Position numbers and translations under genes: made by a program | In this document: one piece after another, positions 30,601 to 63,148 of the stretch | Layout: each line of letters starts with the position of its first letter | Position numbering within the stretch: position 1 is the stretch's first letter | Assembly: GCA_963838025.1 (NCBI GenBank) | Contig: CAWIPF010000001.1 | Coordinates: forward strand, 2,751,757-2,815,756 | Origin: an uncultured Actinomycetota bacterium | GTDB lineage: Bacteria > Actinomycetota > Actinomycetes > Propionibacteriales > Nocardioidaceae | Length of the DNA stretch: 64,000 bases | Direction of reading: 5' to 3' | The notes under the pieces: model-generated | Database searches by the model: none | Seen by the model: the letters and a program-made list of their open reading frames with translations, nothing else | Told to the model about the DNA's origin: nothing

Positions 30601-30890
30601 GTCACCAGCTGCTTGCTGGCACTGCCCTTGGGGCACAGCCGCCCCCGCGAGATCGGGCTGGCGGGGTCCCCCTCGATCTGGGTGACCTTCTCGTCCTTGA
30701 CGAAGACCTTCTGCGCGCAGCCGACCGCGCAGTACGGGCAGATCGAGTCGACGACCCTGTCGGCCTGGGAGGTGCGCGGCGCGAGCGACTCGCTGCGCGC
30801 CGACATCGAGGCCTGGCCCCGGCCGAGGAGGTCGTTCTCCCTTGCCTGTCGCAGCACCGGCCACGACCCGATGAAGGTGCGCACTCCCAC
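27633..30890 (-). CDS. fdhA: selenocysteine-containing formate dehydrogenase alpha subunit (Mo/W-bisPGD); in-frame UGA at 30323-30321
   Basis: Track ORFs 30321..30890 and 27633..30212 are in the same frame (offset 111 nt). Read-through gives VENQARI-U-HSSTVPGLGTSFGRGGAT, the conserved Sec active site. CPYCAVGC FeS motif near the N-terminus. Confidence 0.9.
30285..30320 (-). promoter_or_regulatory. candidate bacterial SECIS hairpin immediately 3' of the UGA
   Basis: Twelve nt after the UGA: GUUCCC-GGUCU-GGGAAC (30308-30292). The GGUCU apical loop resembles the E. coli fdhF SECIS loop. Confidence 0.5.
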
Positions 30891-31000
30891 GCGAGTCTCC
30901 GTCCTGCCGTCGATCGTCGACCCCAGGTATCCCCGGGCCGGTTCCTCAAACGTGGCACCACCCTAGCCCCGCCGTCCAGAGGCCGCCGTAGAGTGCGCGC

Positions 31001-31095
31001 GGAGGCGTTTCTCGTCTGGTGACGGGCGCGGTCCTCAAAACCGTAGGGGCCCAGCATCTGGGTCCGGCGGGTTCGATTCCCGTCCGCCTCCGCCA
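31001..31095 (+). tRNA. selC: tRNA-Sec (anticodon UCA)
   Basis: GGAGGCG acceptor pairs with CGCCTCC, followed by G-CCA. Anticodon loop CCUCAAA has UCA at 31035-37. Long variable arm (TAGGGGCCCAGCATCTGGGTCC), T-loop GGTTCGATTCC; 95 nt. Confidence 0.85.
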
Positions 31096-45533: not shown

Positions 45534-45702
45534 CGAACCCCCCAGGACGCGTCTGCCGAGCCGCGTCACAGACGAGTGGCTGTTACAAGGACTATCGCAC
45601 CACAGGAGGCCTTTACTTTTCAGGAGAACGGCGCAGAAACCCGCAGGCGGACGCCCGCAACGCGGCCGGCATGCGTCGGCCTCGCGGAAACCCCACGTTT
45701 CG

Positions 45703-45718
45703 ATACCCCCTACGGTAT
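45703..45718. promoter_or_regulatory. CsoR-family-type palindromic operator, site 1
   Basis: ATACC-CCCTAC-GGTAT. Confidence 0.45.
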
Positions 45719-45767
45719 TATGGTGCGCGCCGTCCCAGGTGCCCGGGCGGCGCATCGCGGGGGGAGG

Positions 45768-45794
45768 GGAATGATTCCCGGGGCGCCGGGGTTG
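45768..45794 (+). promoter_or_regulatory. SigH/SigR-type promoter (GGAAT-N18-GTTG) for the thioredoxin operon
   Basis: GGAAT at 45768-72, an exact 18-nt spacer, GTTG at 45791-94; 38 nt upstream of the trx ATG. Confidence 0.55.
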
Positions 45795-45811
45795 ATACCC
45801 CCGTAGGTATC
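45794..45811. promoter_or_regulatory. CsoR-family-type palindromic operator, site 2, abutting the -10 element
   Basis: GATACC-CCCGTA-GGTATC. Its reverse complement, ATACCTACGGGGGTAT, resembles the B. subtilis copZA CsoR operator as I recall it. Confidence 0.5.
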
Positions 45812-45831
45812 GTGCAACCGGAGGAGCCCCC

Positions 45832-46209
45832 ATGGCAACCAGGAACCTCACCGCCACCGACTTCGAGCAGACCGTCACCGAGAGCGACATCGTCCTCGTC
45901 GACTTCTGGGCGTCGTGGTGCGGCCCGTGCCGCATGTTCGCCCCGACGTACGAGAAGGCGTCCGAGGCGCACCCCGACATCGTGTTCGGGAAGGTCGACA
46001 CCGAGGCCGAGCAGTCGCTGGCCGCGGCCGCGTCCATCACCTCGATCCCGACGCTGATGGCGTTCCGTGAGGGCGTGCTGGTGTTCGCGCAGCCCGGGGC
46101 GCTCCCGCCGGCCGCGCTGGACCAGGTCATCGAGGCCGTCCGCGGTCTCGACATGGCCGAGGTGCACGCCAAGGTGGCGGCCGCCCAGCAGGACTCCGCC
46201 TCGCGCTGA
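45832..46209 (+). CDS. thioredoxin
   Basis: WASWCGPC active site; 125 aa with a C-terminal extension. Confidence 0.9.
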   Translation: MATRNLTATDFEQTVTESDIVLVDFWASWCGPCRMFAPTYEKASEAHPDIVFGKVDTEAEQSLAAAASITSIPTLMAFREGVLVFAQPGALPPAALDQVIEAVRGLDMAEVHAKVAAAQQDSASR

Positions 46210-46503
<294 letters not shown>

Positions 46504-46542
46504 CCCCCGTGGGAGGATCGGGCCCACGGAGGGAGGAGCCCG

Positions 46543-47259
46543 ATGGACGCTGACGGGGACACCCGGGGCCGGCCCGAGGTCCTGCTCGTCGACGACGAGC
46601 CGGACATCCGCAGGGTCCTGCGCGGCTACCTCGAGACGGAGGGGTTCGCCGTCGTCGAGGCCGCCACCGGCGAGGCCGCGCTCGAGCGGGTCCGACGCCA
46701 GGAGCCGGGCGTGGTCCTGCTCGACGTGATGCTGCCCGACATCGACGGCATCGAGGTGCTGCGCCGGCTGCGCACGTTCACCCAGGTCTTCGTCGTCCTC
46801 GTCACCGCCCGCACCGAGGAGGTCGACAAGCTCGTCGGTCTCGGCGTGGGGGCTGACGACTACATCACCAAGCCGTTCAGCCCGCGCGAGGTCGTCGCCC
46901 GCGTGAAGGCGGTTCTTCGCCGGGCGCGAGGGAGCGCGGTCCAGGACGGCGAGCGCCGGGTGTTCCCGGGTCTCACCCTGGACCCGGCCCGCCGCGAGGT
47001 CTCCTCGGACGGCCGGCCGGTGACGCTCACCGCGCTCGAGTTCGACCTGCTCGCCGCGCTGGCCGGCTCTCCCGGGCGGGTGTTCTCGCGTCGCCAGCTC
47101 CTCGAACGCGTGTGGGGCTACGACTTCTACGGGGACGAGCGGGTGGTCGACGTGCACGTGCGGAACCTGCGGCTGCAGCTGCACGACGACGCCGCGAACC
47201 CGCGCCTGATCGGCACCGTCCGCGGTGTCGGCTACAAGTTCCTCCAGGACCCGGCGTGA
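46543..47259 (+). CDS. OmpR-family response regulator
   Basis: LLVDDEPDI, LLDVMLPDIDG, DDYITKPFS, TVRGVGYKF. Confidence 0.9.
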   Translation: MDADGDTRGRPEVLLVDDEPDIRRVLRGYLETEGFAVVEAATGEAALERVRRQEPGVVLLDVMLPDIDGIEVLRRLRTFTQVFVVLVTARTEEVDKLVGLGVGADDYITKPFSPREVVARVKAVLRRARGSAVQDGERRVFPGLTLDPARREVSSDGRPVTLTALEFDLLAALAGSPGRVFSRRQLLERVWGYDFYGDERVVDVHVRNLRLQLHDDAANPRLIGTVRGVGYKFLQDPA

Positions 47260-48344
47260 ACCGGCTGTCCGTGCGGCTGTTCCTCTCCCACCTCCTGGTG
47301 GCGGTGATCGGCGCGGTCACGACGTACGCCGTGGTGCGGCTGCTGGCGCCGGCACTGTTCGACTCCGGCATGCGGATGATGGGGCCGCGCGCGCAGGGCG
47401 AGGGGGGCCAGCTGCGGACCGCCTTCGCGAGCGCCGTCAACACCTCCTTGGTGATCGGCCTGCTGATCAGCGCGCTGGTGGCGGCCGGCGTCGCCGCGCT
47501 TGCCGGGATCCGGTTGCTGCGCCCGCTCCGGGCGGTGCGGACGGCCACCCGCCGGCTCTCCCAGGGCCACTACGACGAGCAGGTGCAGCCGCCCCGGGAG
47601 GTCGAGCTGGCCGACCTGGTGCACGACGTGAACGACCTCGCCGGCCGGCTGGCCGACACCGAGCAACGCCGGCTGAGCCTGCTGTCCGACGTCGCGCACG
47701 AGATGCGCACGCCGCTGACCGTGATCGGCGGCTACGTCGAGGGGATGCTGGACGGGGTCTTCCCCGCCGGCCCCGACACGCTGCAGCCGGTCGCCGCCGA
47801 GCTGCACCGGCTCGGCCGGCTCGCCGACGATCTCAGCGCGCTCTCCCGGGCGGACGAGAACGCCCTCGACCTGCGCAGGGAGACGCTCGACCTCGCCACC
47901 GTCGTCGCGCAGTCGGCGGAGCGGCTACGACCCCAGTTCGACGAGGCGGGGGTGCGGCTCACCGTGATCGCCTCCCCCGGCGCCGTGCGGGTGCACGGCG
48001 ACCCGGACCGGCTCGGTCAGGTCGTCACCAACCTGATCGGCAACGCGCTGCGCGCCAGCGGACCCGGCCAGGACGTCACGGTCAGCACCGACCGGCACCG
48101 GCACGAGGCCCGCATCGAGGTGCGGGACCAGGGCGAGGGGCTCGCCGCCGAGGATCTCGAGCGGATCTTCGAGCGCTTCTACCGGGTGCGTGGGGGCCGC
48201 AGCGACGGCGACCAGCACGGGTCGGGCATCGGGCTGACCATCTCGCGCGGGATCGTGGCGGCGCACGGCGGCGAGATCACCGCCTCATCGGCAGGTCTCG
48301 GCGCCGGCGCCACCTTCACGGTCGTGCTACCCGCGGTTGGCTGA
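47256..48344 (+). CDS. sensor histidine kinase
   Basis: GTGA overlap with the RR gene. TM-HAMP region, H-box SDVAHEMRTPL, GNALRA, DQGEGL, GSGIGL. Confidence 0.85.
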   Translation: MNRLSVRLFLSHLLVAVIGAVTTYAVVRLLAPALFDSGMRMMGPRAQGEGGQLRTAFASAVNTSLVIGLLISALVAAGVAALAGIRLLRPLRAVRTATRRLSQGHYDEQVQPPREVELADLVHDVNDLAGRLADTEQRRLSLLSDVAHEMRTPLTVIGGYVEGMLDGVFPAGPDTLQPVAAELHRLGRLADDLSALSRADENALDLRRETLDLATVVAQSAERLRPQFDEAGVRLTVIASPGAVRVHGDPDRLGQVVTNLIGNALRASGPGQDVTVSTDRHRHEARIEVRDQGEGLAAEDLERIFERFYRVRGGRSDGDQHGSGIGLTISRGIVAAHGGEITASSAGLGAGATFTVVLPAVG

Positions 48345-50426: not shown

Positions 50427-52260
50427 ATGAAGCGCTCGAAGGTCATCATCGGCCTGACGGCCACGGCTCTGGTGCTCCCCGCCTGGGGAGTGGCTCAAGC
50501 GACCGAACCGGCTCCGGGGACCGCGACACGCTGGACCGAACTGGTCAGTGACGACGGGGGCGACGGTGGCCGCGAACTCCCCGCGATGAGTGCCGACGGC
50601 AAGTACGTCGTGGTCGCCGGGCGCGGCGCGAACGCCGGCATCTGGGTCAAGAACCGGGCCAAGCCGCGGATCGGTGCCAAGCAGGTGGCCACCGGCGACC
50701 TGCAGAACCCCGCGATCAGCGCGAACGGCAAGGTCGTGGCGTGGGCCGCCTACGGCGGCTCCCGGCAGGTCTGGGTCTACAACTGGACCGACCCCAACGC
50801 CAGCCCGAGGATCGCCAGCAAGGACGACGCCGGCGTGGCGTCCACCAAGCCCTCGGACTTCCCGTCCCTGAGCTGGGACGGCCGCTTCGTCGCGTTCCAG
50901 TCCATGGACACGACCCTGGACAACCAGGCGGTGCCGGGCAAGGCCGGCGGCGGCCCGAACAAGGTCTACGTCCGTGACATGAAGTACGGGCACACCGAGA
51001 TGGTCAGCGTCGTCGACGCTGCCGGCGGCGACCAGATCGTCAACGGCAACGCGATCAAGCCCGACATCACGCCCAACGGCAGGTACGTGGTGTTCGCCTC
51101 CGACGCGTCGGTGCTCCAGCCGGCCGTAGCCGAGGGCGAGTCCACCTTCCAGCAGGTCTACCTGCGCAACCGCGGCACCGACCGGACCAAGAGGATCAGC
51201 ATCAACAACTCGTGGCAGGTCGGCAACGGGATGAGCGCCGGGACGTACGGCCCGTCGATCAGCGATGACGGCCAGCGGGTCGTGTTCGAGTCCCAGGCGA
51301 CCAACCTGGTGACCGGTGACACCAACGAGGACACCGATGCGTTCATGCGCGACCGGTCCACGGGCACGACCATTCAGGGTGAGCGTGGCCCCGGACGGCG
51401 CAGTGGAGCCGACGACACCGATGACACCAACGACGGCGACGTCCGGCGACTCCGGGCCCCGCAGGGGGAAGAAACGACCAGACTGGGTGGACGCAGTACC
51501 GGTCGGCATGGGTCCGCAGATCAGCGGCAACGGCGCGCAGGTCGCGTTCGAGTCCGATGCGGCACTCACCCCCGACGACACGAACAGCGTCGACACCTAC
51601 ACCTGCACCGACACCGAGTCGACGTACGACGGCACTGCCTACGTGACCGACATCTACCGGTACAACGTCTCGAACAAGGGCGTCTCCCGGTGGAGCGTCC
51701 CCGAGCCCGGTGACGCCAACGCGTCCGAGGCGGAGGGCTACCGCATGGACGGCCACACCGGCCTGTGCACGACCGTGAACAACGGCGTCGACCCGGCGAT
51801 CAGCGCCAACGGCCGGCGGATCGCGTTCGTCTCCAACGGCAACCTGACCGGCACCACGGTGGCGGAGGAGGAGGGCGAGTCGACCGAGGTGGTCGGCACC
51901 GGGCTCGAGCCGAGGACCTTCCTGCACCGGTCCAACCCGGCGGCACGGGACGTGGTTCGCCCGTCCTCGGACGCCACCTCTCCGTCGTCGGTGACGACGA
52001 AGAGCTTCACGGTGAGGTACAGCACCTTCGACCGGTACCCGAGCTCGGGCATCCGCAAGGTCAAGCTGTACGTGATGCGGCCGGGCGCCAGCAGCTTCAA
52101 GCTGGCCATGGTCGACCGCGGCACCAGCGTCGACCGCCAGTTCACGTTCGCCTACGCGGGCGTGAAGGGCAAGTACCGCTTCTACACCGTCGCGGTGGAC
52201 GGCAAGTACAACCGCGAGTACCGTCCCGGCCGGGCCGACACGGTGACGACAAGGAAGTGA
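50427..52260 (+). pseudogene. secreted PD40/TolB-like beta-propeller repeat protein with a +1 frameshift near 51375
   Basis: Signal peptide. Repeated P-x-IS-x-DG-R/K-x-V-x-F units in both ORF 50427..51713 and ORF 51316..52260. The junction reads RDRSTGTTI / RVSVAPDG. Confidence 0.7.
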
Positions 52261-52457: not shown

Positions 52458-55040
52458 ATGTCGATCTCCCTGAGCCAGCGGCGCGTCGCGCTGGCCACCG
52501 CCACCGCCACCGCCATCGCGGCCGTCGCCACCTGGGGCGCGTTCGCGCTTCGCGACCCGCACGGCAACGAGCCGTCACTCAACGAGCGGCTCGTCGAGAA
52601 GCTCAAGCCGGTCGAGGGCGAGCCCGGCGACGAGTCGCACGAGGCGGCCACCGCCGCCGAGCAGTACGCCCAGGCGCGGACCGCGCCTGGCATCGTCGCT
52701 CCCGGCGCCTACACCGCGGCATGGGACTCCCTCCAGGGGCTCGGGACCGGAGGGGGCAGCTGGACCGAGGAGACCGGCAAGCCCTACAACGCCGACGACC
52801 CGAACTACCGGGAGTACTACCACTCGAACTCCAGTGGCGGCGCGGGCTACGTCACCGGCCGGGTCACCGGCCTGGCCACGCTGCCGGGCCAGGGCACGGG
52901 CGGCAAGGACGCGGTGTTCGCCGGCGGCGCCGACGGCGGGGTGTTCCGGTCGCTGGACGGCGGCACCACCTGGACCGCGATCACGTCGTCGCTGCCGACG
53001 CTCTCGACCGGCGACCTCGAGATCGCCCCGGACGGCGCCCTCTGGTACGCCACCGGTGAGGCGAACACCGGCGGCACGTCGTACGTCGGGACCGGTGTCT
53101 ACCGCCTCGAGGACCCGCTGACGTCGACCGCGTGGCAGCGCGTCGGCGGTGACGAGCTGGAGAGCACCTCGATCAACAAGGTGCGCTTCGACGCCGACGG
53201 CAACGTCTTCGCGGCGACCTTCCGCGGCATCTGGCGGCACTCGTCGACGTCGGCGAGCGACTCGTGGGAGCTGGTCTACGCTCCCAACCCCGACTACCTG
53301 CCGGGTGGCCCGAAGGCGGACGCCCCACTGGCCGGGTACAAGAACATGGTCAACGACCTGGCGATCGACGGCTCGACGATGATCGCGAGCGTGGCCTGGC
53401 GCGGCGGCGACACCTACAACGGCTTCTACGAGTCGACCCGTAGCGGTGACGCGGGCACCTGGCACAAGGTGAACCCGACCGGCGCGCTCAAGGACGTCGG
53501 CATCGGCAACGCGGAGTTCGCCTACTCCGCCGACGGCAGCCACCTGTACGCCGTCGTGGAGTCCACGGTGCGCTACGCCCACACGATGAACACCGTGCTG
53601 GACGGCGTCTACGACTCGCCGAGCGGGTCGGTCGCCGGACCGTGGAACAAGATCGCCGACTCGCAGAAGCTGGCGACGTCGGGGTCGGCGCTGAAGCTCT
53701 ACCGGGGCTACCGGCCCGGCGTTCAGGCCTGGTACAACAACTTCATCGCGGTGGACCCGGCGGACAGCAAGCACGTGTTCGTCGGCCTCGAGGAGGTCTT
53801 CGAGACCCGCGACGCCGGCGTGCACTGGACCACGGTCGCGCCGTACTGGAACTTCTCGTTCCCCTGCTGGAGCTGGGACGACGCGAAGAACACCTGCACC
53901 AAGCCGGCGCCCCACTCCGACCAGCACTCGGTCTCGATCGCCGGCAACAACGTCTACATCGGCAACGACGGCGGCGTCTACACGCGCGACATGGACGCGG
54001 GGTACGACAAGTACGGCCACGGCAAGGGCTGGAAGGAGCTCAACCCGGGTCTCGACGCCCTGCAGTACTACTCGGTGGGGGTCGGCACCACGGCCGGTCA
54101 CCGGGTGATCAGCGGCGGCCTGCAGGACAACGGCCAGTCGCTCTACATCGACGGGCAGGACACGATGGTCTCCCCGTTCGGCGGCGACGGCGGCATCACG
54201 CTCGTCGACCCCCGGCCCGGCCGGGGCTGCAACATCGTCGCCGAGTACGTCTACCTGTCGATGGCGGTGACCAACAACTGCGGCCGGTCCGCCGGTGACC
54301 CCACCGAGTCGCCCCGGGTGATCCGCGACATCGCGCCGGCCGACCCGAGCCCGCGCTTCATCGCACCGTTCGACGACGACGCCACCAACCCGGACCGCTG
54401 GATCGCCGGGGGCAGGTACGTCTGGGTCCAGGACCAGGGCTACGACATCCCCGACGCGTCCGCCTGGGCCAACGTCTTCGACAACGGCTCCGGGCACTCC
54501 ACCACCGCCCTGGCCATGCAGGACGGCGTCGGCTGGACGGCGTGGTGCGGACCCTGCGGCGAGTCGGGCTTCACCCGCGGCGTCTCCACCAGCGCCGGAG
54601 GCAGCTGGCACCAGGTGAACCTGCCCGCCGACGTCCCCAACCGGTACGTCTCCTCCGTCGCGGTCGACCCGCGGGACCCGACCGGGAAGACGGCCTACCT
54701 GGCGTTCAACGGCTTCTCGCGCAAGTTCACCGAGGGGCCCGGCGCCGGCTACGGCCACCTCTGGAAGACGACCGACGCCGGCGGCACCTGGAGCGAGGTC
54801 GGCCACGGCACCCTGCCCGACGTCCCGGCCGACAGCATCGTGCTCACCCCGAGCGGCACGCTGGTGCTCGGCACCGACCTCGGGGTGGTCTACTCCGTCG
54901 ACGGCGGCAGCACCTGGCAGAGGCTCGGCGACAACTTCCCGGCGACGACGGTGATGCAGGTCCTGCTCGGGCCCGACGGCAGGGTCTACGCCGCCACCCA
55001 CGGGCGCGGCATCTGGTCCATCCCGGTGCCCACCACGTGA
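52458..55040 (+). CDS. secreted BNR/Asp-box repeat (sialidase/GH74/sortilin-like beta-propeller) protein
   Basis: Repeated S-x-D-x-G-x-T-W units (SLDGGTTWT, TRDAGVHWTT, TTDAGGTWSE, SVDGGSTWQR). N-terminal SQRRVALATA signal-like region. Confidence 0.75.
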   Translation: MSISLSQRRVALATATATAIAAVATWGAFALRDPHGNEPSLNERLVEKLKPVEGEPGDESHEAATAAEQYAQARTAPGIVAPGAYTAAWDSLQGLGTGGGSWTEETGKPYNADDPNYREYYHSNSSGGAGYVTGRVTGLATLPGQGTGGKDAVFAGGADGGVFRSLDGGTTWTAITSSLPTLSTGDLEIAPDGALWYATGEANTGGTSYVGTGVYRLEDPLTSTAWQRVGGDELESTSINKVRFDADGNVFAATFRGIWRHSSTSASDSWELVYAPNPDYLPGGPKADAPLAGYKNMVNDLAIDGSTMIASVAWRGGDTYNGFYESTRSGDAGTWHKVNPTGALKDVGIGNAEFAYSADGSHLYAVVESTVRYAHTMNTVLDGVYDSPSGSVAGPWNKIADSQKLATSGSALKLYRGYRPGVQAWYNNFIAVDPADSKHVFVGLEEVFETRDAGVHWTTVAPYWNFSFPCWSWDDAKNTCTKPAPHSDQHSVSIAGNNVYIGNDGGVYTRDMDAGYDKYGHGKGWKELNPGLDALQYYSVGVGTTAGHRVISGGLQDNGQSLYIDGQDTMVSPFGGDGGITLVDPRPGRGCNIVAEYVYLSMAVTNNCGRSAGDPTESPRVIRDIAPADPSPRFIAPFDDDATNPDRWIAGGRYVWVQDQGYDIPDASAWANVFDNGSGHSTTALAMQDGVGWTAWCGPCGESGFTRGVSTSAGGSWHQVNLPADVPNRYVSSVAVDPRDPTGKTAYLAFNGFSRKFTEGPGAGYGHLWKTTDAGGTWSEVGHGTLPDVPADSIVLTPSGTLVLGTDLGVVYSVDGGSTWQRLGDNFPATTVMQVLLGPDGRVYAATHGRGIWSIPVPTT

Positions 55041-55041
55041 G

Positions 55042-56076
55042 TCACGTGCCGGGCAGCATGCCGACCGGCAGCAGGCCGTCCCAGCTGCGGTCGGCCCAGA
55101 CGGTCAGCGCCCTGGCCCCGGAGGTGGAGTAGCCGCCCGGCGCCCCGAGCGAGGCGACCGCGATCCGGTGGCCGTCGATGTCCGTCACGACCACGAGCGT
55201 GTTCTTGGCCGGCGTCGTGTAGCCGCTCTTGCCCAGGGAGCCCGGGTAGCGGTTCACGTAGTCGGTGCCGCGCCACACGGTGTGCCGGAAGCGGCCGGCC
55301 ACGGTGGCGATCCGCGCCGAGCGCCTGCCGAGGACGTCCACCAGGGTCGGCTCGGCCAGCGCGGCACGCAGGAGGACCACCAGGTCGCGGGCGGAGGAGT
55401 GCGACCCGGCGGCGGTGAGGCCCGAGGCGTTCGCGGCCACGGTGTCGACCGCGCCGAGCCCCCGGGCCGTCCGGTTCATCGCCCGGTAGAAGGCCCGCCG
55501 GCCCCGGGGGTACGAGCCCGCGATCGCCTCCGCGGCGTCGTTGCCGGACGGCAGCAGCATGCCCTCGAGAAGCACCGTGAACCCGTAGTAGCGACCGCGC
55601 CGGAGCCCGGCGCACGTGCACGGCTGACGCGCCTCGAACCGGTTCACCCGGTGGGCCGGGTGGTCGGGGGCCGTCCGCACCGCGGTCACCGCGGTCAGCA
55701 GCTTCATCGTCGAGGCCGCAGGGAGCTCGGCCCGCATCCGGTGCCGGCCGAGCACCGCCCCGGTGTCGAGGTCGACCACCACCCAGGCCCGCGCCCGCAC
55801 GCGCGGTGGCAGCGCCACGCTGCTCTGCGGGCGGAACACGGTGCGGTTCGCGACGTACACGGTGCCGCCGTCGCCGCTCACCGTGCCCTCGTGCCGCAGC
55901 AGCACCACGCGGGACGTCGAACCGGTCAGGGCGAGGGGCGCGCGGGCGACCGGACCGTGGGTGAGGACGGCCGGGACCAGCGCGGCGGCCGCCAGCAGTG
56001 CCGCCGACCGCGCCGCGCGAGCGCCCGCGCGGCGACGCCGGCGGGCGGGCTGGACACCTGGCCTCATGGACATCAA
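55042..56076 (-). CDS. D-alanyl-D-alanine carboxypeptidase (peptidase S11)
   Basis: STMK (SxxK), SGND (SxN), GKSGYT (KTG-like). Arg-rich signal peptide. Confidence 0.85.
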   Translation of the reverse strand: MMSMRPGVQPARRRRRAGARAARSAALLAAAALVPAVLTHGPVARAPLALTGSTSRVVLLRHEGTVSGDGGTVYVANRTVFRPQSSVALPPRVRARAWVVVDLDTGAVLGRHRMRAELPAASTMKLLTAVTAVRTAPDHPAHRVNRFEARQPCTCAGLRRGRYYGFTVLLEGMLLPSGNDAAEAIAGSYPRGRRAFYRAMNRTARGLGAVDTVAANASGLTAAGSHSSARDLVVLLRAALAEPTLVDVLGRRSARIATVAGRFRHTVWRGTDYVNRYPGSLGKSGYTTPAKNTLVVVTDIDGHRIAVASLGAPGGYSTSGARALTVWADRSWDGLLPVGMLPGT

Positions 56077-56199
56077 GCATGAGCGCGTCCCGGCCCGCGC
56101 GCAGGAAGTCCGCGAAGCTCACCCTCTCGCGCGCAGGGGGATGCGGCCCGGCGACGGGTCTGCGACCCTGGAGGGACAACGGTCGAGGAGCTGGGGGCT

Positions 56200-57075
56200 G
56201 TGATGGAGCGACGACGTCTGGGCCGGACCGGTCATGCCAGCTCGGTGCTGGTCTACGGTGCCGCGGCCCTGTCCGACGTCGACCAGGACACCGCCGACGC
56301 CTCCGTCCAGGAGGCCCTCGACGCCGGCATCAACCACTTCGACGTGGCGGCCGGGTACGGCGAGGCCGAGCTGCGGCTGGGGCCGTGGATGCCGCGGATC
56401 CGCTCGGACATCTTCCTGGCCACCAAGACCGACGAGCGCGGTGCCGAGGACGCCTGGGCCCAGATCAACCGGTCGCTGGAGCGGCTGGGCACGGACTCCG
56501 TCGACCTGATCCAGATCCACGCCGTCGGCGACCCGGAGACCCTCGACCAGGTCACCCGGTCCGGCGGCGCCCTCGAGGCGGTGATCAGGGCCCAGGAGGA
56601 GGGGATGGCCGCGGCGGTGGGCATCACCGGCCACAGCCACCAGGCCCCACGGACCCACCTGCAGGCGCTGCACCGGTTCCCGTTCACCACGGTGCTGACG
56701 CCGCTGAACGCGGCCCTCTGGCAGCGGCCCGACTACCGGCGCGACTACGAGGCCCTGGCCGCGGAGGCCGGCCGCCAGGACGTCGGGTTGATGACGATCA
56801 AGACCGTGGCCCGGCGGAACTGGCCCGAGGACGCGGGGAGGACCTTCGCGACCTGGTACGAGCCCCACGACCAGCCGGAGCGGATCCGGGCGAGCGTCTC
56901 GTGGGTGCTCGCGCACGGCGAGGTCACCGGGCTGGCCACCCCCGGCGACGTCCGGCTGCTGCGCCACGTCGTGGCGGCGGAGAGGGACCGGATGTCGGTC
57001 GAGGACGCGGAGGCGCTGCTGCTCAGCGACCCGGCGTACTCCTCCCCCTTCGAGGCGATGCCCGCGGGTCTGTAG
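56200..57075 (+). CDS. aldo/keto reductase
   Basis: LGRTG..., INHFDVAAGYGEAE, FLATK, VDLIQIHAV. Confidence 0.85.
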   Translation: MMERRRLGRTGHASSVLVYGAAALSDVDQDTADASVQEALDAGINHFDVAAGYGEAELRLGPWMPRIRSDIFLATKTDERGAEDAWAQINRSLERLGTDSVDLIQIHAVGDPETLDQVTRSGGALEAVIRAQEEGMAAAVGITGHSHQAPRTHLQALHRFPFTTVLTPLNAALWQRPDYRRDYEALAAEAGRQDVGLMTIKTVARRNWPEDAGRTFATWYEPHDQPERIRASVSWVLAHGEVTGLATPGDVRLLRHVVAAERDRMSVEDAEALLLSDPAYSSPFEAMPAGL

Positions 57076-57189
57076 CACCCGGACCCCGGGTGGCCCATCC
57101 GCTCTGGCCAGATCGGGCTATTGCCCAAACCTGAGCGTGGTCAGGAAAGTAAAGGGAGCCTGACCATTCCTGCTGCGAGGGGGTCCGCC

Positions 57190-59979
57190 ATGGCCGGCGA
57201 ACGAGTACTGAGCTATCTCGGAAAGATCTCGACCGATGTCGGCGCGGTGGGTGCGCAGATCTCCGAGATCCGCCCGACGCCCAGCGAGGTCGGTCCGGTC
57301 TTCCGGGAGGTCTACAAGGGCTCCAAGCCGGCGGCGCGACGGCTGGCCGCGGCCTACGCCGCCGCGCTGCCCTCCATCGACCAGCACCGCCAGGTCTTCC
57401 AGGCGGTCGCGCTGTCGCGCGACCCCGAGGAGCGGCGCACGCTGCTGAAGGGCTACCACGACGCGGGCCAGGACCGCTGGGTCGTGCACGCGATCGGCCA
57501 GCTCCCGGCGGCGCACGGCCGGACCCTCATGAAGGACTTCGTGCTCACCCCGTCGGGCGGTCGGAACAAGGCCGCCCTCGACGAGGTGTGGCAGTACGTC
57601 GCCGAGCTCGGCTCGCAGATCCGCGCCCCTCAAGGACCCGTCGACGCCAACGGCGAGCCGCCGCACGACGACGCCGTGGTGGAGTTCATCGAGGACGTCG
57701 TCGACGAGATCAAGGACGCGATCGAGAGCGTGGTCGACGCGGTCGTGAACGCGGTGGAGAGTCTCGTCGACGCCTTGGTCACCGTGGTGAACTGGACCGT
57801 CGACCAGCTGACGAACCTCGCCCAGGCGCTGCTCACCGCCGGCAAGACGATCCTCGACCTGCTCCAGGCCGCGGTGGCCTACGGCTACGACTTCGTCCGC
57901 AACATGATCGCGGCCATCCGCAACGTGGGAAAGGCGATGTTCGAGATCCTCGAGCAGGCGGTGAACTTCGTCGGCCAGCAGCTCGTGAACATCCTCAAGG
58001 CCATCGACAACCTCGGCCACCAGCTCTCCGAGCTGCTCTCCTGGCTGGCCACCCAGGTCGCGAGCGTGGTCACCCGGGTGGTGGAGGCGCTGATCGCCAT
58101 CGGCAAGACCGTGGCCAACATCCTGGCCCAGGCCGCCGCCGCCGCCTTCGAGGTGCTCCGCCGCGTCGTCGAGGGGTTGCTGGCACTCGGCCGGCAGATC
58201 GGCGAGCTGCTGCTCGAGGCCGCCAAGTCCACCCTGGAGCTGCTGCGGGAGACGGTGAAGGCGCTCATCGCCCTCGGCCGGGCGGTCGTCGACGTGGTGA
58301 CGTCGGTCATCTCCGCCGCCGCGCACCTGCTCACCGAGGTGGTCCGGGCGATCGCCGAGATCGCGAGCGGGTTCGTGGAGCTCTGCCAGATCATCGCCCA
58401 GGAGGCGCTGGCGATCGCGAGCGCGGTGGCCAAGGCGATGCTCGAGATCGGACGCACCCTCGCCGAGCTGGTCGTCGAGCTGGCCAAGATCGGCCTCGCC
58501 GCGGTGAAGCGGATCGTCAACGCCGCGCTCGAGCTCGGCTACGCCGTGGTCCGGGTCATCCGAGAGGTCTCCCGGCTGGTCGTGTCCGCCATCCGCGACG
58601 TCATCAAGGCGCTCGTCGCCGCCGGGAAGGCGCTGGTCGAGATCGTGCAGGCCGTGGTGGCCTTCACCTACAAGACCGCCCGCCGGTTCGTCGAAGCGGC
58701 CCTGGCCGCCGGCATCAAGCTGGCGCAGCTGCTCGAGGAGGCCGCGAAGGGCACCTACTACCTGCTGCGCCGGATGATCACCGGGATCATCGACGCCGGC
58801 CGAAAGGTGGCCGAGATCCTCGACTGGGTCTACACCCAGGCCGCCAACGTCGTCGAGGCGCTGCTGCGGGAGGCGGTGCTGGCGATCCGGTTCGTCCGCA
58901 AGGCGCTCGACGAGGCCCTGGACTGGGCCCTGAAGAAGGGCCGCGACTTCCTCGAGGCCGTGGTCCGCGTGGCCGAGGACATCGGCAGCAGGCTTCGCGA
59001 CGTCATCGACTGGGCCAAGGCGGCCGGGGCGAAGGCGCTGGAGCTGCTGGGAGAGGTGTGGGTGCGGATCGGCAACTCCGTGACCTACGTGCTCGGCTGG
59101 GTGGCCAAGGACTTCATCCCCGGGCTGGTCTCCCTGGTCACCGGACTGCTGCGGGCCGGCCTCGCGGTGGTGGAGATCGTCGCCTGGGCGGTGGGCAAGG
59201 CGCTGAGTGCGGTCATCGCGGTGCTGCAGTCGGCGCTGGCGGCCGGCGTGGCGATGGTGGACCTGCTCATCGCGATCGCCGCGCAGCCGCAGAACGCCGG
59301 CGCGCTGTTCGTGCAGGCGATGCGCGACCTGGGCAAGACCGTCAAGGACATCCTCGAGCCCGCGTTCACCCTCAACGACGCCGACAAGCGCTACCTGGTC
59401 CAGGCCCTGAAGGACGCCGGCACGGGCCTCCAGGAGTGCCTCGACGGGCTCGTGGAGATCTTCGGCGGAGCGGTCTTCACCGTGGTGGCGGTCCTGCTCG
59501 AGATCTTCGGCCTGTTCCGGCCGCTGACCCCGGGCGAGCGTCAGCGTGCCGTGTCGGTCTACCAGGACACGCTGCCCTACGACGACATCCGCCTGTTCAT
59601 CGGGTCGTTCGTCTCGTGGGCGGCGGCCAACAACACCGGCGGGGACACCGGGGTCACCACGATGCGGATCATCCACTTCCCGGACAGCTACAGCGACACC
59701 AACCCGGGACAGGAGAGCTGGCTGATCCACGAGCTCATGCACGTCTGGCAGGGCGAGCACCAGGGACCGGCGTACATGGCGCACGCGCTGATCGGCCAGG
59801 CCACCGACGGCTACGACTACGGCGGCACGGCCGGCCTCGACGCCCACGTGGCACAGGGGCTCGACGCGTTCAACCCCGAGCAGCAGGCCCAGATCTGCCA
59901 GGACTTCTACGGGATCCTCAAGGCGAGCGGGAGCACGTCGCACTACGACCCCTACATCGCCGAGGTCCGGGCGGCATGA
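57190..59979 (+). CDS. 929-aa protein: unknown N-domain, about 18 copies of a 29-residue helical repeat, hydrophobic segment, C-terminal HExxH zincin-like (DUF4157-like) domain
   Basis: ATG 57190 lies behind GAGGGGG. Repeat-marking Gly falls at residues 218, 247, 276 ... 537 (exact 29 spacing). HELMH at 59728-59742 sits in the context WLIHELMHVWQ. Confidence 0.8.
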   Translation: MAGERVLSYLGKISTDVGAVGAQISEIRPTPSEVGPVFREVYKGSKPAARRLAAAYAAALPSIDQHRQVFQAVALSRDPEERRTLLKGYHDAGQDRWVVHAIGQLPAAHGRTLMKDFVLTPSGGRNKAALDEVWQYVAELGSQIRAPQGPVDANGEPPHDDAVVEFIEDVVDEIKDAIESVVDAVVNAVESLVDALVTVVNWTVDQLTNLAQALLTAGKTILDLLQAAVAYGYDFVRNMIAAIRNVGKAMFEILEQAVNFVGQQLVNILKAIDNLGHQLSELLSWLATQVASVVTRVVEALIAIGKTVANILAQAAAAAFEVLRRVVEGLLALGRQIGELLLEAAKSTLELLRETVKALIALGRAVVDVVTSVISAAAHLLTEVVRAIAEIASGFVELCQIIAQEALAIASAVAKAMLEIGRTLAELVVELAKIGLAAVKRIVNAALELGYAVVRVIREVSRLVVSAIRDVIKALVAAGKALVEIVQAVVAFTYKTARRFVEAALAAGIKLAQLLEEAAKGTYYLLRRMITGIIDAGRKVAEILDWVYTQAANVVEALLREAVLAIRFVRKALDEALDWALKKGRDFLEAVVRVAEDIGSRLRDVIDWAKAAGAKALELLGEVWVRIGNSVTYVLGWVAKDFIPGLVSLVTGLLRAGLAVVEIVAWAVGKALSAVIAVLQSALAAGVAMVDLLIAIAAQPQNAGALFVQAMRDLGKTVKDILEPAFTLNDADKRYLVQALKDAGTGLQECLDGLVEIFGGAVFTVVAVLLEIFGLFRPLTPGERQRAVSVYQDTLPYDDIRLFIGSFVSWAAANNTGGDTGVTTMRIIHFPDSYSDTNPGQESWLIHELMHVWQGEHQGPAYMAHALIGQATDGYDYGGTAGLDAHVAQGLDAFNPEQQAQICQDFYGILKASGSTSHYDPYIAEVRAA
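57841..59421 (+). repeat. 87-nt (29-codon) periodic coding repeat array inside the 929-aa gene
   Basis: Consensus roughly a-l-x-a-G-K/R-x-h-x-E-h-L-x-x-A-h-x(13). Twelve consecutive units are in perfect register (residues 218-565). Six more follow after insertions of 18 and 15 aa. Confidence 0.75.
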
Positions 59980-60932
59980 CGCAGCCCCCCGGGTGCTGGG
60001 TCCTGGTCTGCCCGCCGGACGCGGCGGTGTCGCTGCGGCCGCTGGTCGACGCGCACGCGACCACGCGCGAGGTCCGCGTCGTCGAGCGGGCCGGCCCGCC
60101 GGCACCCGACGACTGGCCGCGGCTGGTCCCGGCCGGCGCGGAGGCGGTGCTGCTGGTCGGCAACCGGCGCCGGGCTCCCGCCACCGTCGTCGACGGGCCG
60201 TTCGTGCCGTCCGCCGACGGGCGCTGGGTGCCGGTGGGCTGGCTGCCCGCCACCCGGGGGCTCGACCGCTTCGGGTCCGCGGCCGCCCGGGTCTCGCGGC
60301 GGCGGGACCCCGGCCCGGTCGCGGTGCTCGGGCAGCGCAGCGTGCGCTACCAGACGCTGTCGGACCGGCTGCTGCACCACCTCGGGGAGGTCGAGGCGGT
60401 GCGATGGGGCGCCGAGCGGGTCACCCGCGAGGACCTGGTGGCCGGGCTGGCCGCCGGGCTCGGGGTCGCGGTCTACCTCGGCCACGGCCGCCCGTCGGGC
60501 TGGGCCGGCTACCGCGGGCTCCGTGCGCCGCACCTGCTCCCCCTGGCCGGTGAGCCGCTCGGGTTCCTGCTGTCGGTCACCTGCTGGACGGCGAGCCGCA
60601 AGGGCGTCGGCACCAGCTTCTGCGAGCAGGTCGTGGTGCAGGGCTCCGCCGCGGCCGGGCTCGGGGCGGTGCGGCCCACCCTGCACCTGGACAACACCCG
60701 GGTGGTCCTCGCCCTGGCGCGCGCGCTGCGCTCGCGGCCACGGACCGCCGGGGAGCTGGTGGCCGGGATGCTGCTCCAGGACGGCCGGCCCTCCCCGGAG
60801 TCGTCGTCGTACCGGCTCTGTGGCGACCCGCTGGCCGTGCTGGCCGGCGCCCCGACCGCCGCGGCCCGGGCCCGCCGGGTGCGTGCCCCGGCACCCGACT
60901 TCACCCCGCGACCGAGCAGGGCGGCCTCGTGA
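59976..60932 (+). CDS. clan CD (gingipain C25/caspase-like) His-Cys peptidase-fold protein
   Basis: ATGA overlap with the upstream gene. VAVYLGHGRPSGW (His170), then 30 aa later PLGFLLSVTCWTAS (Cys203), matching the H-G...hydrophobic strand-C layout of C25 peptidases. No signal peptide. Confidence 0.55.
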   Translation: MTQPPGCWVLVCPPDAAVSLRPLVDAHATTREVRVVERAGPPAPDDWPRLVPAGAEAVLLVGNRRRAPATVVDGPFVPSADGRWVPVGWLPATRGLDRFGSAAARVSRRRDPGPVAVLGQRSVRYQTLSDRLLHHLGEVEAVRWGAERVTREDLVAGLAAGLGVAVYLGHGRPSGWAGYRGLRAPHLLPLAGEPLGFLLSVTCWTASRKGVGTSFCEQVVVQGSAAAGLGAVRPTLHLDNTRVVLALARALRSRPRTAGELVAGMLLQDGRPSPESSSYRLCGDPLAVLAGAPTAAARARRVRAPAPDFTPRPSRAAS

Positions 60933-61183
60933 GCGGCGCCCCCGACCTCGGCGAGCTCACCCTCGACCTGCGGGGGCTGGTGGCCGAGCTGGCCGAGCTG
61001 GATCCCGCCGATCTCACTCCGGACACCTCGTTCCCCGAGGTGGGCATCGACTCGCTGCTGGCCATGGAGATCGCCGTGCACGTCGAGCGCCGGCACGGAG
61101 TGCGCTTCGAGGACAGCGACCTCAACCGCATCCGGACCCTGCGACAGCTGGCGGACCTCGTCGTCGAGCGTCGCGATGGCTGA
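60929..61183 (+). CDS. acyl carrier protein
   Basis: 84 aa; EVGIDSLLAMEI (phosphopantetheine Ser42). GTGA overlap with the upstream gene. Confidence 0.85.
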   Translation: MSGAPDLGELTLDLRGLVAELAELDPADLTPDTSFPEVGIDSLLAMEIAVHVERRHGVRFEDSDLNRIRTLRQLADLVVERRDG

Positions 61184-62363
61184 CCGGCGCGCGGTCGTCA
61201 CCGGCCTCGGGGTGGTCTCCCCGCTGGGCCGCGGTGCCCGCGACACCTGGGCCGCGGTGACCTCGGGCACGTCGGGGATCGTCCGCAGGCCGCAGGACGG
61301 CCGGCTGGTGGCGCAGGTCCCGGCGGAGCTGCTCACCGAGCCCGTCCGCGACCGCGACGGGCGTCCGCTTCTCGGTCGCGCCGCCGGGCTGGCGCTGCTG
61401 GCCGGGGCCGACGCGCTCGCCGACGCGGGCCTCGGCGCCGCCGGCGTCGACCTGGTGGTGGGGACCACGATGGGCGAGCCGACCTGGATCGACACGTGGC
61501 CCGACGAGCAGGCGGCGCTGTCGCCCCCACCCGCCGCTCGGGCCGCCGAGCTGCTGGCGGGCACGCCGGCCGGGATGACGGAGGTGATCGCGCACCGCCT
61601 CGGGACCAGCGGCCGCGCGGCCGCCGTCGGCGGTGCCTGCGCCGCGGGCAACTTCGCACTCGCGCGAGCCCTCGACGACATCCGCAGCGGGCGCAGCGGC
61701 TGCGTCCTCGCCGGCGGGGTCGACGCCTTCAGCCGCACCGCCCTGATCGGCTTCGCGAAGCTGGGTGCCCTCGCCGACGACGCCTGCCGTCCGTTCGGCC
61801 GGGACCGCCAGGGACTGGTCCTCGGCGAGGGAGCCGCCTTCCTGGTCGTCGAGGAACGGGACCGGGCGCTCTCCCGGGGGGCGACGGTGCTGGCCGAGCT
61901 CGCGGGTGCGGGGCTCTCGTGCGACGCCTACCACCCGACCAGCCCGCGCCCCGACGGGAGCGGCGCCGCCCAGGCCCTGGGCGCCGCACTCGCGGACGCC
62001 GGCACGGCCACCGACGAGGTCGGCTGGGTCAGCGCCCACGGCACCGGGACACCGGCCAACGACCGCGCCGAGGTGCAGGCGCTCGCCCGGGTGTTCGGCC
62101 GGTCCGGACCGCCGGCGTCGTCGGTGAAGTCGCTGACCGGGCACGGCCTCGGGGCGGCGAGCGCCGTCGAGGCGGTCGTCGCGGTGCTGGCGCTCCGGCG
62201 CGGGCTGGTCCCCCCGACCTGGTTCGTCGGGGTGCAGGAGCCGGAGTGCGACTGGGACGTGGTGACCGACGGCCCGCGGGAGCTGACCCGAGACGTCGTG
62301 GTCAACCAGGCCTACGCCTTCGGCGGCTGCAACGCGGTGACGGTCCTGCGGAGGTCGGCATGA
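61176..62363 (+). CDS. beta-ketoacyl-ACP synthase (KAS II/KS-alpha type)
   Basis: GGACAAG (Cys), SAHGTGTPAND (His), SLTGHGLGAAS (His). 8-nt overlap with the ACP gene. Confidence 0.9.
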   Translation: MADRRAVVTGLGVVSPLGRGARDTWAAVTSGTSGIVRRPQDGRLVAQVPAELLTEPVRDRDGRPLLGRAAGLALLAGADALADAGLGAAGVDLVVGTTMGEPTWIDTWPDEQAALSPPPAARAAELLAGTPAGMTEVIAHRLGTSGRAAAVGGACAAGNFALARALDDIRSGRSGCVLAGGVDAFSRTALIGFAKLGALADDACRPFGRDRQGLVLGEGAAFLVVEERDRALSRGATVLAELAGAGLSCDAYHPTSPRPDGSGAAQALGAALADAGTATDEVGWVSAHGTGTPANDRAEVQALARVFGRSGPPASSVKSLTGHGLGAASAVEAVVAVLALRRGLVPPTWFVGVQEPECDWDVVTDGPRELTRDVVVNQAYAFGGCNAVTVLRRSA

Positions 62364-63148
62364 AGGCCTTCGTCACGGCGGCCAGCGCCTTCGGCGCGCG
62401 GGGGCACGGCCTGGGCAACGTCACCGCGGAGCCGGTGAGCGACGAGACCCTGGCCGCGGGGCTCACGATGCGGGGCCTGCGCCCGCTCTCGCGGACCGCA
62501 CGCCTGGCCATGGTGGCCGCCGCGCAGGTCTTCCCCCCCGGCAGCCCGAGCCGCCCCGACGACGGCATCGTCCTCGGCTCCGCGTGGTCGAGCGTCGGTC
62601 CGCTCGCGGACTTCGTCCAGGTCGCGGTCGACGTCGGCCCCGACCAGGTCTTCCCGATGGCCTTCCCGAACACCGTCACCAGCGTGCACGCGGGGTACGT
62701 CGCGACCCTGCTCGGCTGCCGCGGGCCGGTGCTCTCGGTGTGCGGGGAGCACGCCGGGCTGGAGGCCGTGGTCGAGTCGCTCTCCCTGCTCGCCCGGCAC
62801 CGCGCCGAACGCGTGCTGGCCATCGCCGCCGAGGCCGCCGAGCCCGCCGTGGCGGCGGCCCGGCCCGGTGCCGGCGAGGCGGCCGCGGCCCTCCGGCTCG
62901 CGGCCACGCCGGAGTCCGACTGCCTGTCGCTCGTGACCGGGGCCTGGACCGCGCCGACCGCCGACGACCTGCCGGACGAGGTGCGTCGCGCGGCCCTCGG
63001 CGACGACAGGGAGGACTTCGGCGCCGTCTCGGGGATGCTGGCCATCCTGCGCGGCCTGGACGAGGTCGCGCACCACGGCCGCCCGGTGGTCGTGCTGGGC
63101 CGGTCGGGCGTGCGCGGGGTGGCCGCGGTGCGGCTCGAGCCGGCCTGA
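62360..63148 (+). CDS. truncated ketosynthase-like protein (chain-length-factor-like partner)
   Basis: 262 aa with thiolase-fold N-half features (MAFPNTVTSVHAGYVATLLGCRGPVLSV) and no C-terminal His-His half. ATGA overlap with the KS gene. Confidence 0.6.
   Translation: MKAFVTAASAFGARGHGLGNVTAEPVSDETLAAGLTMRGLRPLSRTARLAMVAAAQVFPPGSPSRPDDGIVLGSAWSSVGPLADFVQVAVDVGPDQVFPMAFPNTVTSVHAGYVATLLGCRGPVLSVCGEHAGLEAVVESLSLLARHRAERVLAIAAEAAEPAVAAARPGAGEAAAALRLAATPESDCLSLVTGAWTAPTADDLPDEVRRAALGDDREDFGAVSGMLAILRGLDEVAHHGRPVVVLGRSGVRGVAAVRLEPA

Follow-up and report, generated by a model that had tools for sequence, protein, structure and literature searches.

In a 64,000-nucleotide stretch of an uncultured Nocardioidaceae bacterium (contig CAWIPF010000001.1 of assembly GCA_963838025.1; hereafter the window, whose numbering is used throughout), we describe a five-gene operon, g1 to g5, that recurs as a unit, with its gene order unchanged, in at least eight bacterial phyla. 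It encodes a rod protein ending in a zinc metallopeptidase domain (g1), a clan CD cysteine peptidase (g2), an acyl carrier protein (ACP; g3), a ketosynthase (KS; g4) and a half-size ketosynthase-like partner (g5). The individual domains belong to known families; the combined system fits no known kind. A first-pass annotation, made from the letters of the window and a list of their open reading frames (ORFs), had named no described system of this composition, and we likewise found no profile library or paper that assigns the set to a characterized pathway. There is no curated NCBIfam equivalog describing the combination, and literature searches found no paper combining DUF4157 with an ACP, or a C25 peptidase with a KS or ACP.

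The five ORFs occupy 57190-63148 on the + strand, and the ORF list and translations confirmed both their coordinates and the four overlapping junctions that had been noted for them. The genes for g1 (57190..59979, 929 amino acids) and g2 (59976..60932, 318 amino acids) share the sequence ATGA at 59976-59979; those for g2 and g3 (60929..61183, 84 amino acids) share GTGA at 60929-60932; those for g3 and g4 (61176..62363, 395 amino acids) share the eight nucleotides ATGGCTGA at 61176-61183; and those for g4 and g5 (62360..63148, 262 amino acids) share ATGA at 62360-62363. In this DNA of 70-78% GC, the GC content by codon position is typical of real genes across g1 to g5, at 0.91-0.98 for third positions (0.97 in g1) and 0.41-0.61 for second positions. 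Runs resembling GAGG or GGAGG precede the starts of g1, g2 and g5, and the ATG of g1 at 57190, which follows a Shine-Dalgarno-like GAGGGGG by 7 nt, agrees with the N-termini of the orthologues. Judged from its sequence, the set of five genes is a real operon.

The idea that the two peptidase genes belong with the ACP/KS/half-KS trio stood up when other genomes were examined. Homologues of g2 form only 65 clusters among 5.8 billion proteins, and a scan of one genome per species across 185,579 species gave 52 loci with g2. In 49 of these 52 species genomes, drawn from seven phyla, an ACP gene and a KS gene follow g2 directly on the same strand, with g1 before g2 and g5 at the end wherever the contig is long enough; metagenome contigs are arranged alike. 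The carriers include Actinomycetota (Nocardioides, Oryzobacter, Ornithinibacter, Jatrophihabitans, Ilumatobacter and Gaiellaceae), Chloroflexia (Chloroflexota), Bacteroidota, Nitrospirales (Nitrospirota), Krumholzibacteriota, Beta- and Gammaproteobacteria (Pseudomonadota), Helicobacteraceae (Campylobacterota) and Fibrobacterota, and among them are the cultured Nocardioides halotolerans, N. caldifontis, Oryzobacter and Nitrosospira briensis. At every one of the four junctions the genes overlap in about 70-75% of 40-46 orthologous loci, and where they do not, the gap is mostly 30 nt or less. The g1 orthologues are full-length in all loci, with the same architecture at 32-96% identity, and the matrices of pairwise identity computed for the five proteins correlate with one another (r=0.89-0.94). 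The KS of a Chloroflexia copy is 75% identical to that of a Gaiellaceae copy, an indication that the whole unit has been transferred horizontally.

Clustering of all ORFs in the 10-kb flanks of about 60 loci revealed no further conserved gene. The first-pass annotation had seen no acyltransferase (AT), ketoreductase (KR), dehydratase (DH), enoyl reductase (ER), thioesterase (TE), secretion or immunity genes near the operon, and the same holds across these flanks, where no AT, KR, DH, ER, TE, phosphopantetheinyl transferase (PPTase), transporter, immunity or secretion gene is conserved beside the module. Response regulators recur in 12 loci, which we estimate to be roughly the chance level for so common a family; two-component pairs near the module in several other loci were likewise judged close to chance in frequency.

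The module can be divided. Genes for g1 and g2 stand without an ACP or KS gene beside them at loci L002, L003 and L030 (the last being one of two Nitrospirales genomes) and at L039 and L040, both from Fibrobacterota. There is also a short-rod subfamily of g1 (P0069-P0073), whose members have 698-798 amino acids, about 16 repeats and basic tails at both termini but share the head and metallopeptidase domain of g1; in Limnobacter, the gene after a short-rod gene (L061 10001-13083) is a divergent C25-like one (hhalign probability 93.9%), again with no ACP or KS gene. Since g1 and g2 also occur without the trio, they form the core of the module and g3-g5 a common accessory. At L002 (4171-12956, in an 8.5-Mb genome) a DDE_3 transposase gene lies immediately upstream of the g1-g2 pair and, further out on both sides, there are HTH_Tnp_1 and rve transposase genes in inverted orientation, so that the region looks like a composite-transposon-like unit.

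The last part of g1 (residues 778-929; 59521..59976, +) is a gluzincin-type domain of the DUF4157/VgrG2b-Tpe1 kind, in agreement with the DUF4157-like layout that had been noted for it. Against Pfam PF13699 (eCIS_core, DUF4157; cut-off 22 bits) the isolated domain scored 24.7 bits and full-length g1 21.3 bits, and 10 of 24 aligned family members matched the family. A profile of the domain searched with hmmsearch found the VgrG2b effector metallopeptidase (PDB 6H56, 6h56_A) across the domain at E=1.2e-22. The HELMH motif is encoded at 59728-59742 and a putative third zinc ligand, Glu897, at 59878-59880 within an FNPEQQ motif; HExxHxWQ, YDYGG and FNPEQQ motifs are conserved in the domain, and H847, E848, H851, W853, Q854 and E897 are each conserved in at least 92% of 51 orthologues. 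AlphaFold modelled the domain with a predicted local distance difference test score (pLDDT) of 85-95, and the same domain ends all 51 long-rod and 5 short-rod relatives. In VgrG2b the third zinc ligand is a downstream glutamate, E983 (Wood et al; PMC6899460). The C-terminal 155 residues of g1 are homologous to VgrG2b/Tpe1 over the whole catalytic domain, sharing HExxH and a downstream Glu, and the VgrG2b EQQ motif aligns with FNPEQQ of g1; Glu897 is likely the equivalent of E983.

The C-terminal domain of VgrG2b and Tpe1 are gluzincins; they act as toxins in the periplasm, where an immunity protein encoded downstream neutralizes them (PMC6899460). Unlike these proteins, the g1 domain is not fused to VgrG or PAAR and instead ends a 770-residue head-and-rod protein that has no signal peptide. 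Neither a link to a type VI secretion system (T6SS) nor a small downstream immunity gene is conserved in the flanks, where the next gene encodes the C25-like peptidase. Nor does g1 resemble a polymorphic toxin, which would combine a variable C-terminal toxin with a cognate immunity gene: the zincin is invariant and there is no immunity gene. Standalone homologues of about 177 amino acids, without a leader peptide, are encoded elsewhere (P0124, L063 8001-8537; P0121, L065 8001-8531) as single genes beside PRPP synthetase, MeaB and hrcA-grpE-dnaK; this suggests that the DUF4157/VgrG2b superfamily has a branch of cytoplasmic proteins that are not toxins.

DUF4157 is also a core marker of extracellular contractile injection system (eCIS) loci and of the long, helix-rich, transmembrane-containing effectors related to tape measures (Tme proteins) (PMC8213781, PMC11126660), although its role in contractile injection systems (CIS) is still called unknown (PMC8213781). 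A protein that is long and helical, with a hydrophobic segment and the same Pfam domain, might therefore be a tape-measure-like cargo effector of a contractile injection or secretion machine encoded elsewhere, with g2 and the trio as its maturation factors. We consider this very unlikely. The eCIS and Tme proteins carry DUF4157 at the N-terminus, followed by variable toxin domains, and are encoded within CIS clusters, whereas the domain of g1 is C-terminal and invariant; the window, scanned over 27-64 kb, contained no CIS, T6SS or other secretion gene, nor did the 10-kb flanks at about 60 loci; and the many lineages that carry the module do so regardless of envelope type.

Preceding the metallopeptidase domain is a rod (residues 161-770; 57670..59499, +) in which about 21 repeats, each of 29 residues, keep one register. 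The first-pass annotation had described 29-residue helical repeats: their periodicity proved to lie far beyond chance (lag-29 BLOSUM autocorrelation 0.92, against a maximum of -0.28 in 300 shuffles), while their extent is about 610 residues, or 21 units, and not the roughly 560 first given. A position profile over 51 orthologues resolves each repeat into four heptads and one skip residue, with hydrophobic positions at 3, 6/7, 10/11, 14, 17/18, 21/22, 25/26 and 28, Gly common at positions 29 and 4, K/R at 1 and D/E at 5. The length of the rod is 606-615 residues in all 51 orthologues, and conservation extends to many repeat-specific Trp, Tyr, Arg and Asn residues. The notion that each 29-residue unit is a released peptide, cut from a polyprotein after G-K/R, is disfavoured by this conservation of repeat number and of repeat-specific residues. 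The same repeat of four heptads plus a skip residue is known from SF-assemblin (PMC2119799). Like SF-assemblin and beta-giardin, the g1 rod keeps its length strongly conserved while its sequence drifts; those proteins are, in contrast, eukaryotic cytoskeletal filament proteins to which no homology of g1 was detected, and the g1 rod is more than twice as long and much more apolar, with GxxxG-like glycines at the repeat boundaries. A Foldseek search with the full-length g1 model gave no match at E 0.001 or better because the rod is modelled with low pLDDT. A word-indexed homologue search with full-length g1 was also limited, returning only 8 proteins as alanine-rich candidates saturated the filter, and the orthologues were recovered through loci anchored on g2.

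At the end of the rod, residues 751-777 (59440..59520, +; LDGLVEIFGGAVFTVVAVLLEIFGLFR) form a hydrophobic helix and candidate membrane anchor. A hydrophobic segment had been placed here by the first-pass annotation, and it is indeed the sole hydrophobic peak conserved family-wide, being the only place in g1 where the family-mean Kyte-Doolittle value rises above 1.5. At the other end, the head (residues 1-160; 57190..57669, +) is all-helical, with a conserved core at roughly residues 60-145 and an AlphaFold pLDDT of about 90 over residues 20-140. It has no Pfam match, and its profile found nothing significant in the PDB. Among 1.84 billion representative proteins, the head profile gave only 67 matches, all at or near the N-terminus; these are mostly fragments, the longer ones being g1-sized, and they look like members of the g1 family. 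The head is family-specific.

The composition of the rod, 59% apolar with wide hydrophobic faces, raises the possibility that the trio makes a hydrophobic product, that g1 is an apolipoprotein- or phasin-like coat or scaffold for a lipid or polyketide body, and that g2 and the zincin trim that coat. Biosynthetic genes and a structural protein are indeed co-translated here, and Phasin_2 (Pfam PF09361) scores above its cut-off in g1 (37.2 bits) and in several orthologues, with weaker matches to ApoLp-III and Baculo_PEP_C. Yet the Phasin_2 matches span one short stretch, only residues 469-557 in g1, and are probably compositional, and flank clustering showed no polyhydroxyalkanoate genes conserved near the module, which speaks against membership of the phasins. 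The fixed rod length and the invariant repeat-specific W, Y, R and N residues point to a defined fold rather than to a generic lipid-binding helix; core pairs occur without the biosynthetic genes; a KS, a half-size chain-length factor (CLF) and an ACP alone cannot make a storage lipid; and the two peptidase domains would be left unexplained. We regard a lipid body as improbable.

The second gene, which always comes directly after that for g1, encodes a catalytically intact C25-type cysteine peptidase of the gingipain/PorU-like kind, and the gingipain/caspase-fold arrangement of His170 and Cys203 that had been read from it was upheld by Pfam, by structure modelling and by conservation. g2 matched Pfam Peptidase_C25 at 1.6e-8 (34.6 bits, cut-off 23). 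His170 lies in LGHGRP (60477-60494) and Cys203 in SVTCWTA (60573-60593); His170 (GHG) and Cys203 (TC) are invariant in 28 g2 homologues. An AlphaFold model built on this 28-sequence alignment had a pLDDT of 91.3, and in a Foldseek search its best PDB matches were the gingipains RgpB and Kgp at a template-modelling score (TMq) of 0.66-0.68 (1cvr, E=1.5e-9; 6i9a, TMq 0.68), followed by SAVED-CHAT, separase and Craspase. A profile alignment places the His and Cys motifs of g2 on those of PorU and RgpB, and the His-to-Cys spacing of 33 residues is the same as that between His211 and Cys244 of RgpB. g2 therefore shares with the C25 peptidases RgpB/Kgp and PorU a two-subdomain alpha/beta fold (TM about 0.66) and the GHG His and TC Cys motifs. 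It differs from them in being small (about 318 amino acids) and in having no signal peptide, propeptide, Ig-like domain or type IX secretion system (T9SS) C-terminal domain, and its family also occurs in Gram-positive bacteria, including Actinomycetota. The protein begins MTQPPGCWVLV, with no hydrophobic leader or extra domain. NCBI names its orthologues 'C25 family cysteine peptidase'.

A protein that seemed to fuse the C25 and ACP domains (P0034, PF01364+PF00550, at L005; a similar one at L035) was rejected as evidence of a natural fusion, since its frameshifted sequence reads into the ACP frame and is part nonsense; it is an assembly error or a pseudogene. Such g2 frameshifts in long-read metagenome-assembled genomes (L005 9929-10981, L035 4335-5525) have placed spurious C25-ACP fusions in public protein sets.

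The features of g1 and g2 also fit, in part, a conflict or cell-death module acting in abortive infection, programmed lysis or kin-killing, in which g1 would be a latent envelope-attacking metallopeptidase toxin carried on a rod, g2 a caspase-like trigger by which it is released or activated, and the trio a source of lipid required for insertion into the membrane or a sensor of the state of lipid synthesis. The zincin belongs to the family of the antibacterial toxins VgrG2b and Tpe1, and since toxicity of the VgrG2b domain is confined to the periplasm, a cytoplasmic precursor would need no immunity protein (PMC6899460). After the gingipains, the folds closest to g2 are, alongside separase, defence-associated CHAT proteases (SAVED-CHAT and Craspase). 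The patchy cross-phylum distribution with variable neighbourhoods, and the rve-family transposase genes flanking the L002 pair, would suit such a module as well. On the other side, PADLOC-DB 2.0 returned nothing for g2-g5 and for g1 only a compositional match of the helical region to the ZorA tail (4e-7); g2 had no match in plasmid and phage collections; and the module lacks a sensor domain such as an NTPase, STAND or nucleotide cyclase domain. Its toxin domain shows no polymorphism and has no immunity gene, a literature search found no ketosynthase in known defence systems and no paper placing one in an anti-phage system, and the neighbours are ordinary metabolic genes and not a defence island. 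We think a conflict module unlikely.

The remaining three genes had been read as an ACP, an active KS and a truncated KS partner, an assignment that Pfam and the conservation of catalytic residues substantiate. g3 matched Pfam PP-binding at 1.3e-17, with the phosphopantetheine Ser42 in a DSL motif (61049-61057) whose D41, S42 and L43 are at least 90% conserved in 50 orthologues. g4 is a FabF-type decarboxylating/elongating ketosynthase: both Pfam KS halves are present, TIGR03150 (fabF) scores 287 bits, which is below the equivalog cut-off, Cys155 (GACAA), His253, His288 and Lys318 are conserved in 48 orthologues, and the best PDB matches are 9s5h_B and the Iga11 KS (6kxd). In g5 only the first thiolase half is found. 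Pfam Ketoacyl-synt_2 matched at 3.7e-5, just under the cut-off; the g5 profile covers only KS residues about 78-240, and the family profile best matches 9s5h_C (residues 78-197, 5e-16). We found no paper mentioning PDB entry 9S5H. Members of the g5 family are 130-300 amino acids long and have no conserved nucleophile; Cys128 of the window protein is not conserved, and neither is His131 at its CLF-equivalent position. NCBI names the N. caldifontis orthologue 'beta-ketoacyl synthase N-terminal-like domain-containing protein'.

The trio has the hallmarks of a minimal KS-CLF-ACP unit of type II fatty-acid synthase (FAS) or polyketide synthase (PKS) systems, namely a KS with Cys-His-His-Lys, a partner without a nucleophile and an ACP with the DSL serine, while g5 is not a canonical full-length CLF with a decarboxylating active-site Gln. 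A half-size CLF is known to pair with a KS in aryl-polyene synthesis, as ApeO-ApeC (PMC8358021). A full-length active KS, a partner of one thiolase half and a dedicated ACP are thus shared with ApeO-ApeC-ACP and with the reducing type II PKS pair Iga11-Iga12, although ApeC is absent from the top 60 PDB matches of g5. Unlike aryl-polyene genes, g3-g5 are coupled to two peptidase-domain proteins and not to a biosynthetic cluster; the usual accompaniments of aryl-polyene synthesis (KR, DH, a second KS, tandem ACPs, an adenylation or acyltransferase enzyme, export) are neither in the module nor conserved in its flanks. In having no AT, KR, DH or ER of its own, the g3-g5 set resembles NodF/NodE, which rely on the host FAS. 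The aldo/keto reductase gene upstream of g1 was considered as the missing KR and rejected: it is not conserved beside other loci, and a hairpin-containing gap of 114 nt separates it from g1.

As a KS, a half-CLF and an ACP alone are a known minimal chain-building unit (PMC8358021), g3-g5 could make a small diffusible fatty-acid or polyketide metabolite while g1-g2 act independently, so that two unrelated functions would share one transcript. That the pair occurs without the trio, and that no linking enzyme is encoded, would accord with such an arrangement. Against it, the fixed gene order and the g2/g3 overlap persist over seven phyla, divergence is tightly correlated among all five proteins, the trio was seen solely beside the pair in the loci examined (no search was begun from the trio), and no tailoring, release or export genes are conserved. 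We hold two unrelated functions to be highly improbable.

As a possibility that we put forward tentatively, g1-g5 may together make up a self-contained module, spread horizontally and built of two core and three accessory genes, that produces a protease-matured, membrane-associated rod metallopeptidase provided with an acyl chain. According to this model, g1 would reside at the cytoplasmic membrane through its hydrophobic helix, and g2 would bind g1 and mature it by proteolysis or, by analogy with PorU, transpeptidate it. The trio would be primed by the AcpS and FabD of the host, would probably borrow host FabG, FabZ and FabI in the manner of NodF/NodE, and would build a specialized acyl or beta-ketoacyl chain on its own ACP. 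The g1/g2 complex would then receive this chain, which would serve either as a covalently attached lipid anchor or, bound by the very apolar rod, as a hydrophobic ligand, and its hand-over would tune where or when the metallopeptidase end acts on the cell envelope. For the last step, the envelope action of VgrG2b-type domains from the periplasm offers a precedent for g1 (PMC6899460). The lipidation and anchoring roles are speculation.

Two comparisons bear on this model. PorU, the C25-related sortase of the T9SS, couples proteins to lipid by transpeptidation. MARTX and the RTX toxin system HlyA/HlyC are large toxins that are processed by clan CD cysteine protease domains and activated by acylation, and the proposed module would resemble them in joining a large repeat protein, clan CD protease processing and dependence on acyl-ACP. 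It differs from them in having no RTX repeat, type I secretion system or HlyC-type acyltransferase, and in using a separate C25-type protease with no internal C80 domain.

Several points weigh against the model of an acyl-bearing rod metallopeptidase. The module has no recognizable acyltransferase, and no thioesterase or PPTase, and as g1 has no conserved Cys it offers no obvious lipidation site. The core pair occurs without the trio in several lineages, which means that a lipid input is not essential, and the analogy with PorU would not extend to an acyl-thioester donor. The AlphaFold model of the rod has a pLDDT below 50. g1 has no signal peptide, and the charges flanking its hydrophobic helix do not clearly place the zincin domain outside; the closest standalone relatives of that domain stand in housekeeping contexts with no toxin context, leaving an envelope-acting role not assured. 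In its broadest form, the proposal is of a new kind of protein-lipid machine in which a chain made by the ACP, KS and half-KS is used by the C25 peptidase/transpeptidase, or by the rod, to anchor or load a fixed-length helical rod bearing a metallopeptidase 'warhead': a lipid-dependent, protease-gated device for envelope remodelling or cell killing, spread horizontally over at least eight phyla and independent of known secretion and defence systems. We regard this broader proposal as rather doubtful.

Within the window the operon is bounded downstream by a convergent gene, whose end lies 10 nt beyond that of g5, and upstream by the aldo/keto reductase gene (56200-57075, +). The intergenic leader (57076..57189, +) holds, besides the Shine-Dalgarno-like run, two short perfect hairpins within 57076-57165: CACCCGG-ACC-CCGGGTG directly after the reductase stop, and GGTCAGG-N13-CCTGACC. 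They might serve as a terminator or in regulation; scanning 56-64 kb for RNA families, promoters and terminators found no Rfam family, sigma-70 consensus promoter or terminator. Further upstream are two overlapping ORFs for PD40/WD40-like beta-propellers (50427-51713 and 51316-52260, +), possibly one frameshifted gene, then a gene for an 860-amino-acid protein without a Pfam match (52458-55040, +) and an ambiguous coding frame (55041-56200). None of the beta-propeller ORFs, the 860-amino-acid protein and the aldo/keto reductase is conserved beside the module in other loci. Lipid- or signalling-related genes of the window encode a WS/DGAT wax-ester synthase, a PLD-like protein and an OmpR-type two-component pair (31038-32387, -; 44151-46607, -; 46504-48344, +). 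A molybdopterin oxidoreductase gene resembling formate dehydrogenase alpha (27633-30962, -) contains a TGA codon in frame at about 30318-30320, where the context ENQARI-U-HSSTVPGLG is that of a typical selenocysteine site, and the gene for the elongation factor SelB (34352-36091, +) lies 4 kb away.

From Actinomycetota to Campylobacterota, the parts of this module are kept together with unchanged gene order and translational coupling. At 6 kb the module is small; it is also self-contained and present in cultured strains, and is thus directly testable. The g1 rod may be the first segmented coiled coil of conserved length with 29-residue repeats to be seen in a bacterium, a design that we found described only for SF-assemblin and beta-giardin. 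If an acyl chain built on a private ACP serves the rod protein, the module would represent a new way for bacteria to lipidate proteins, or to assemble them in dependence on acyl-ACP, and if the chain is used on or by the rod in this way it would give DUF4157 its first cellular context outside injection systems.

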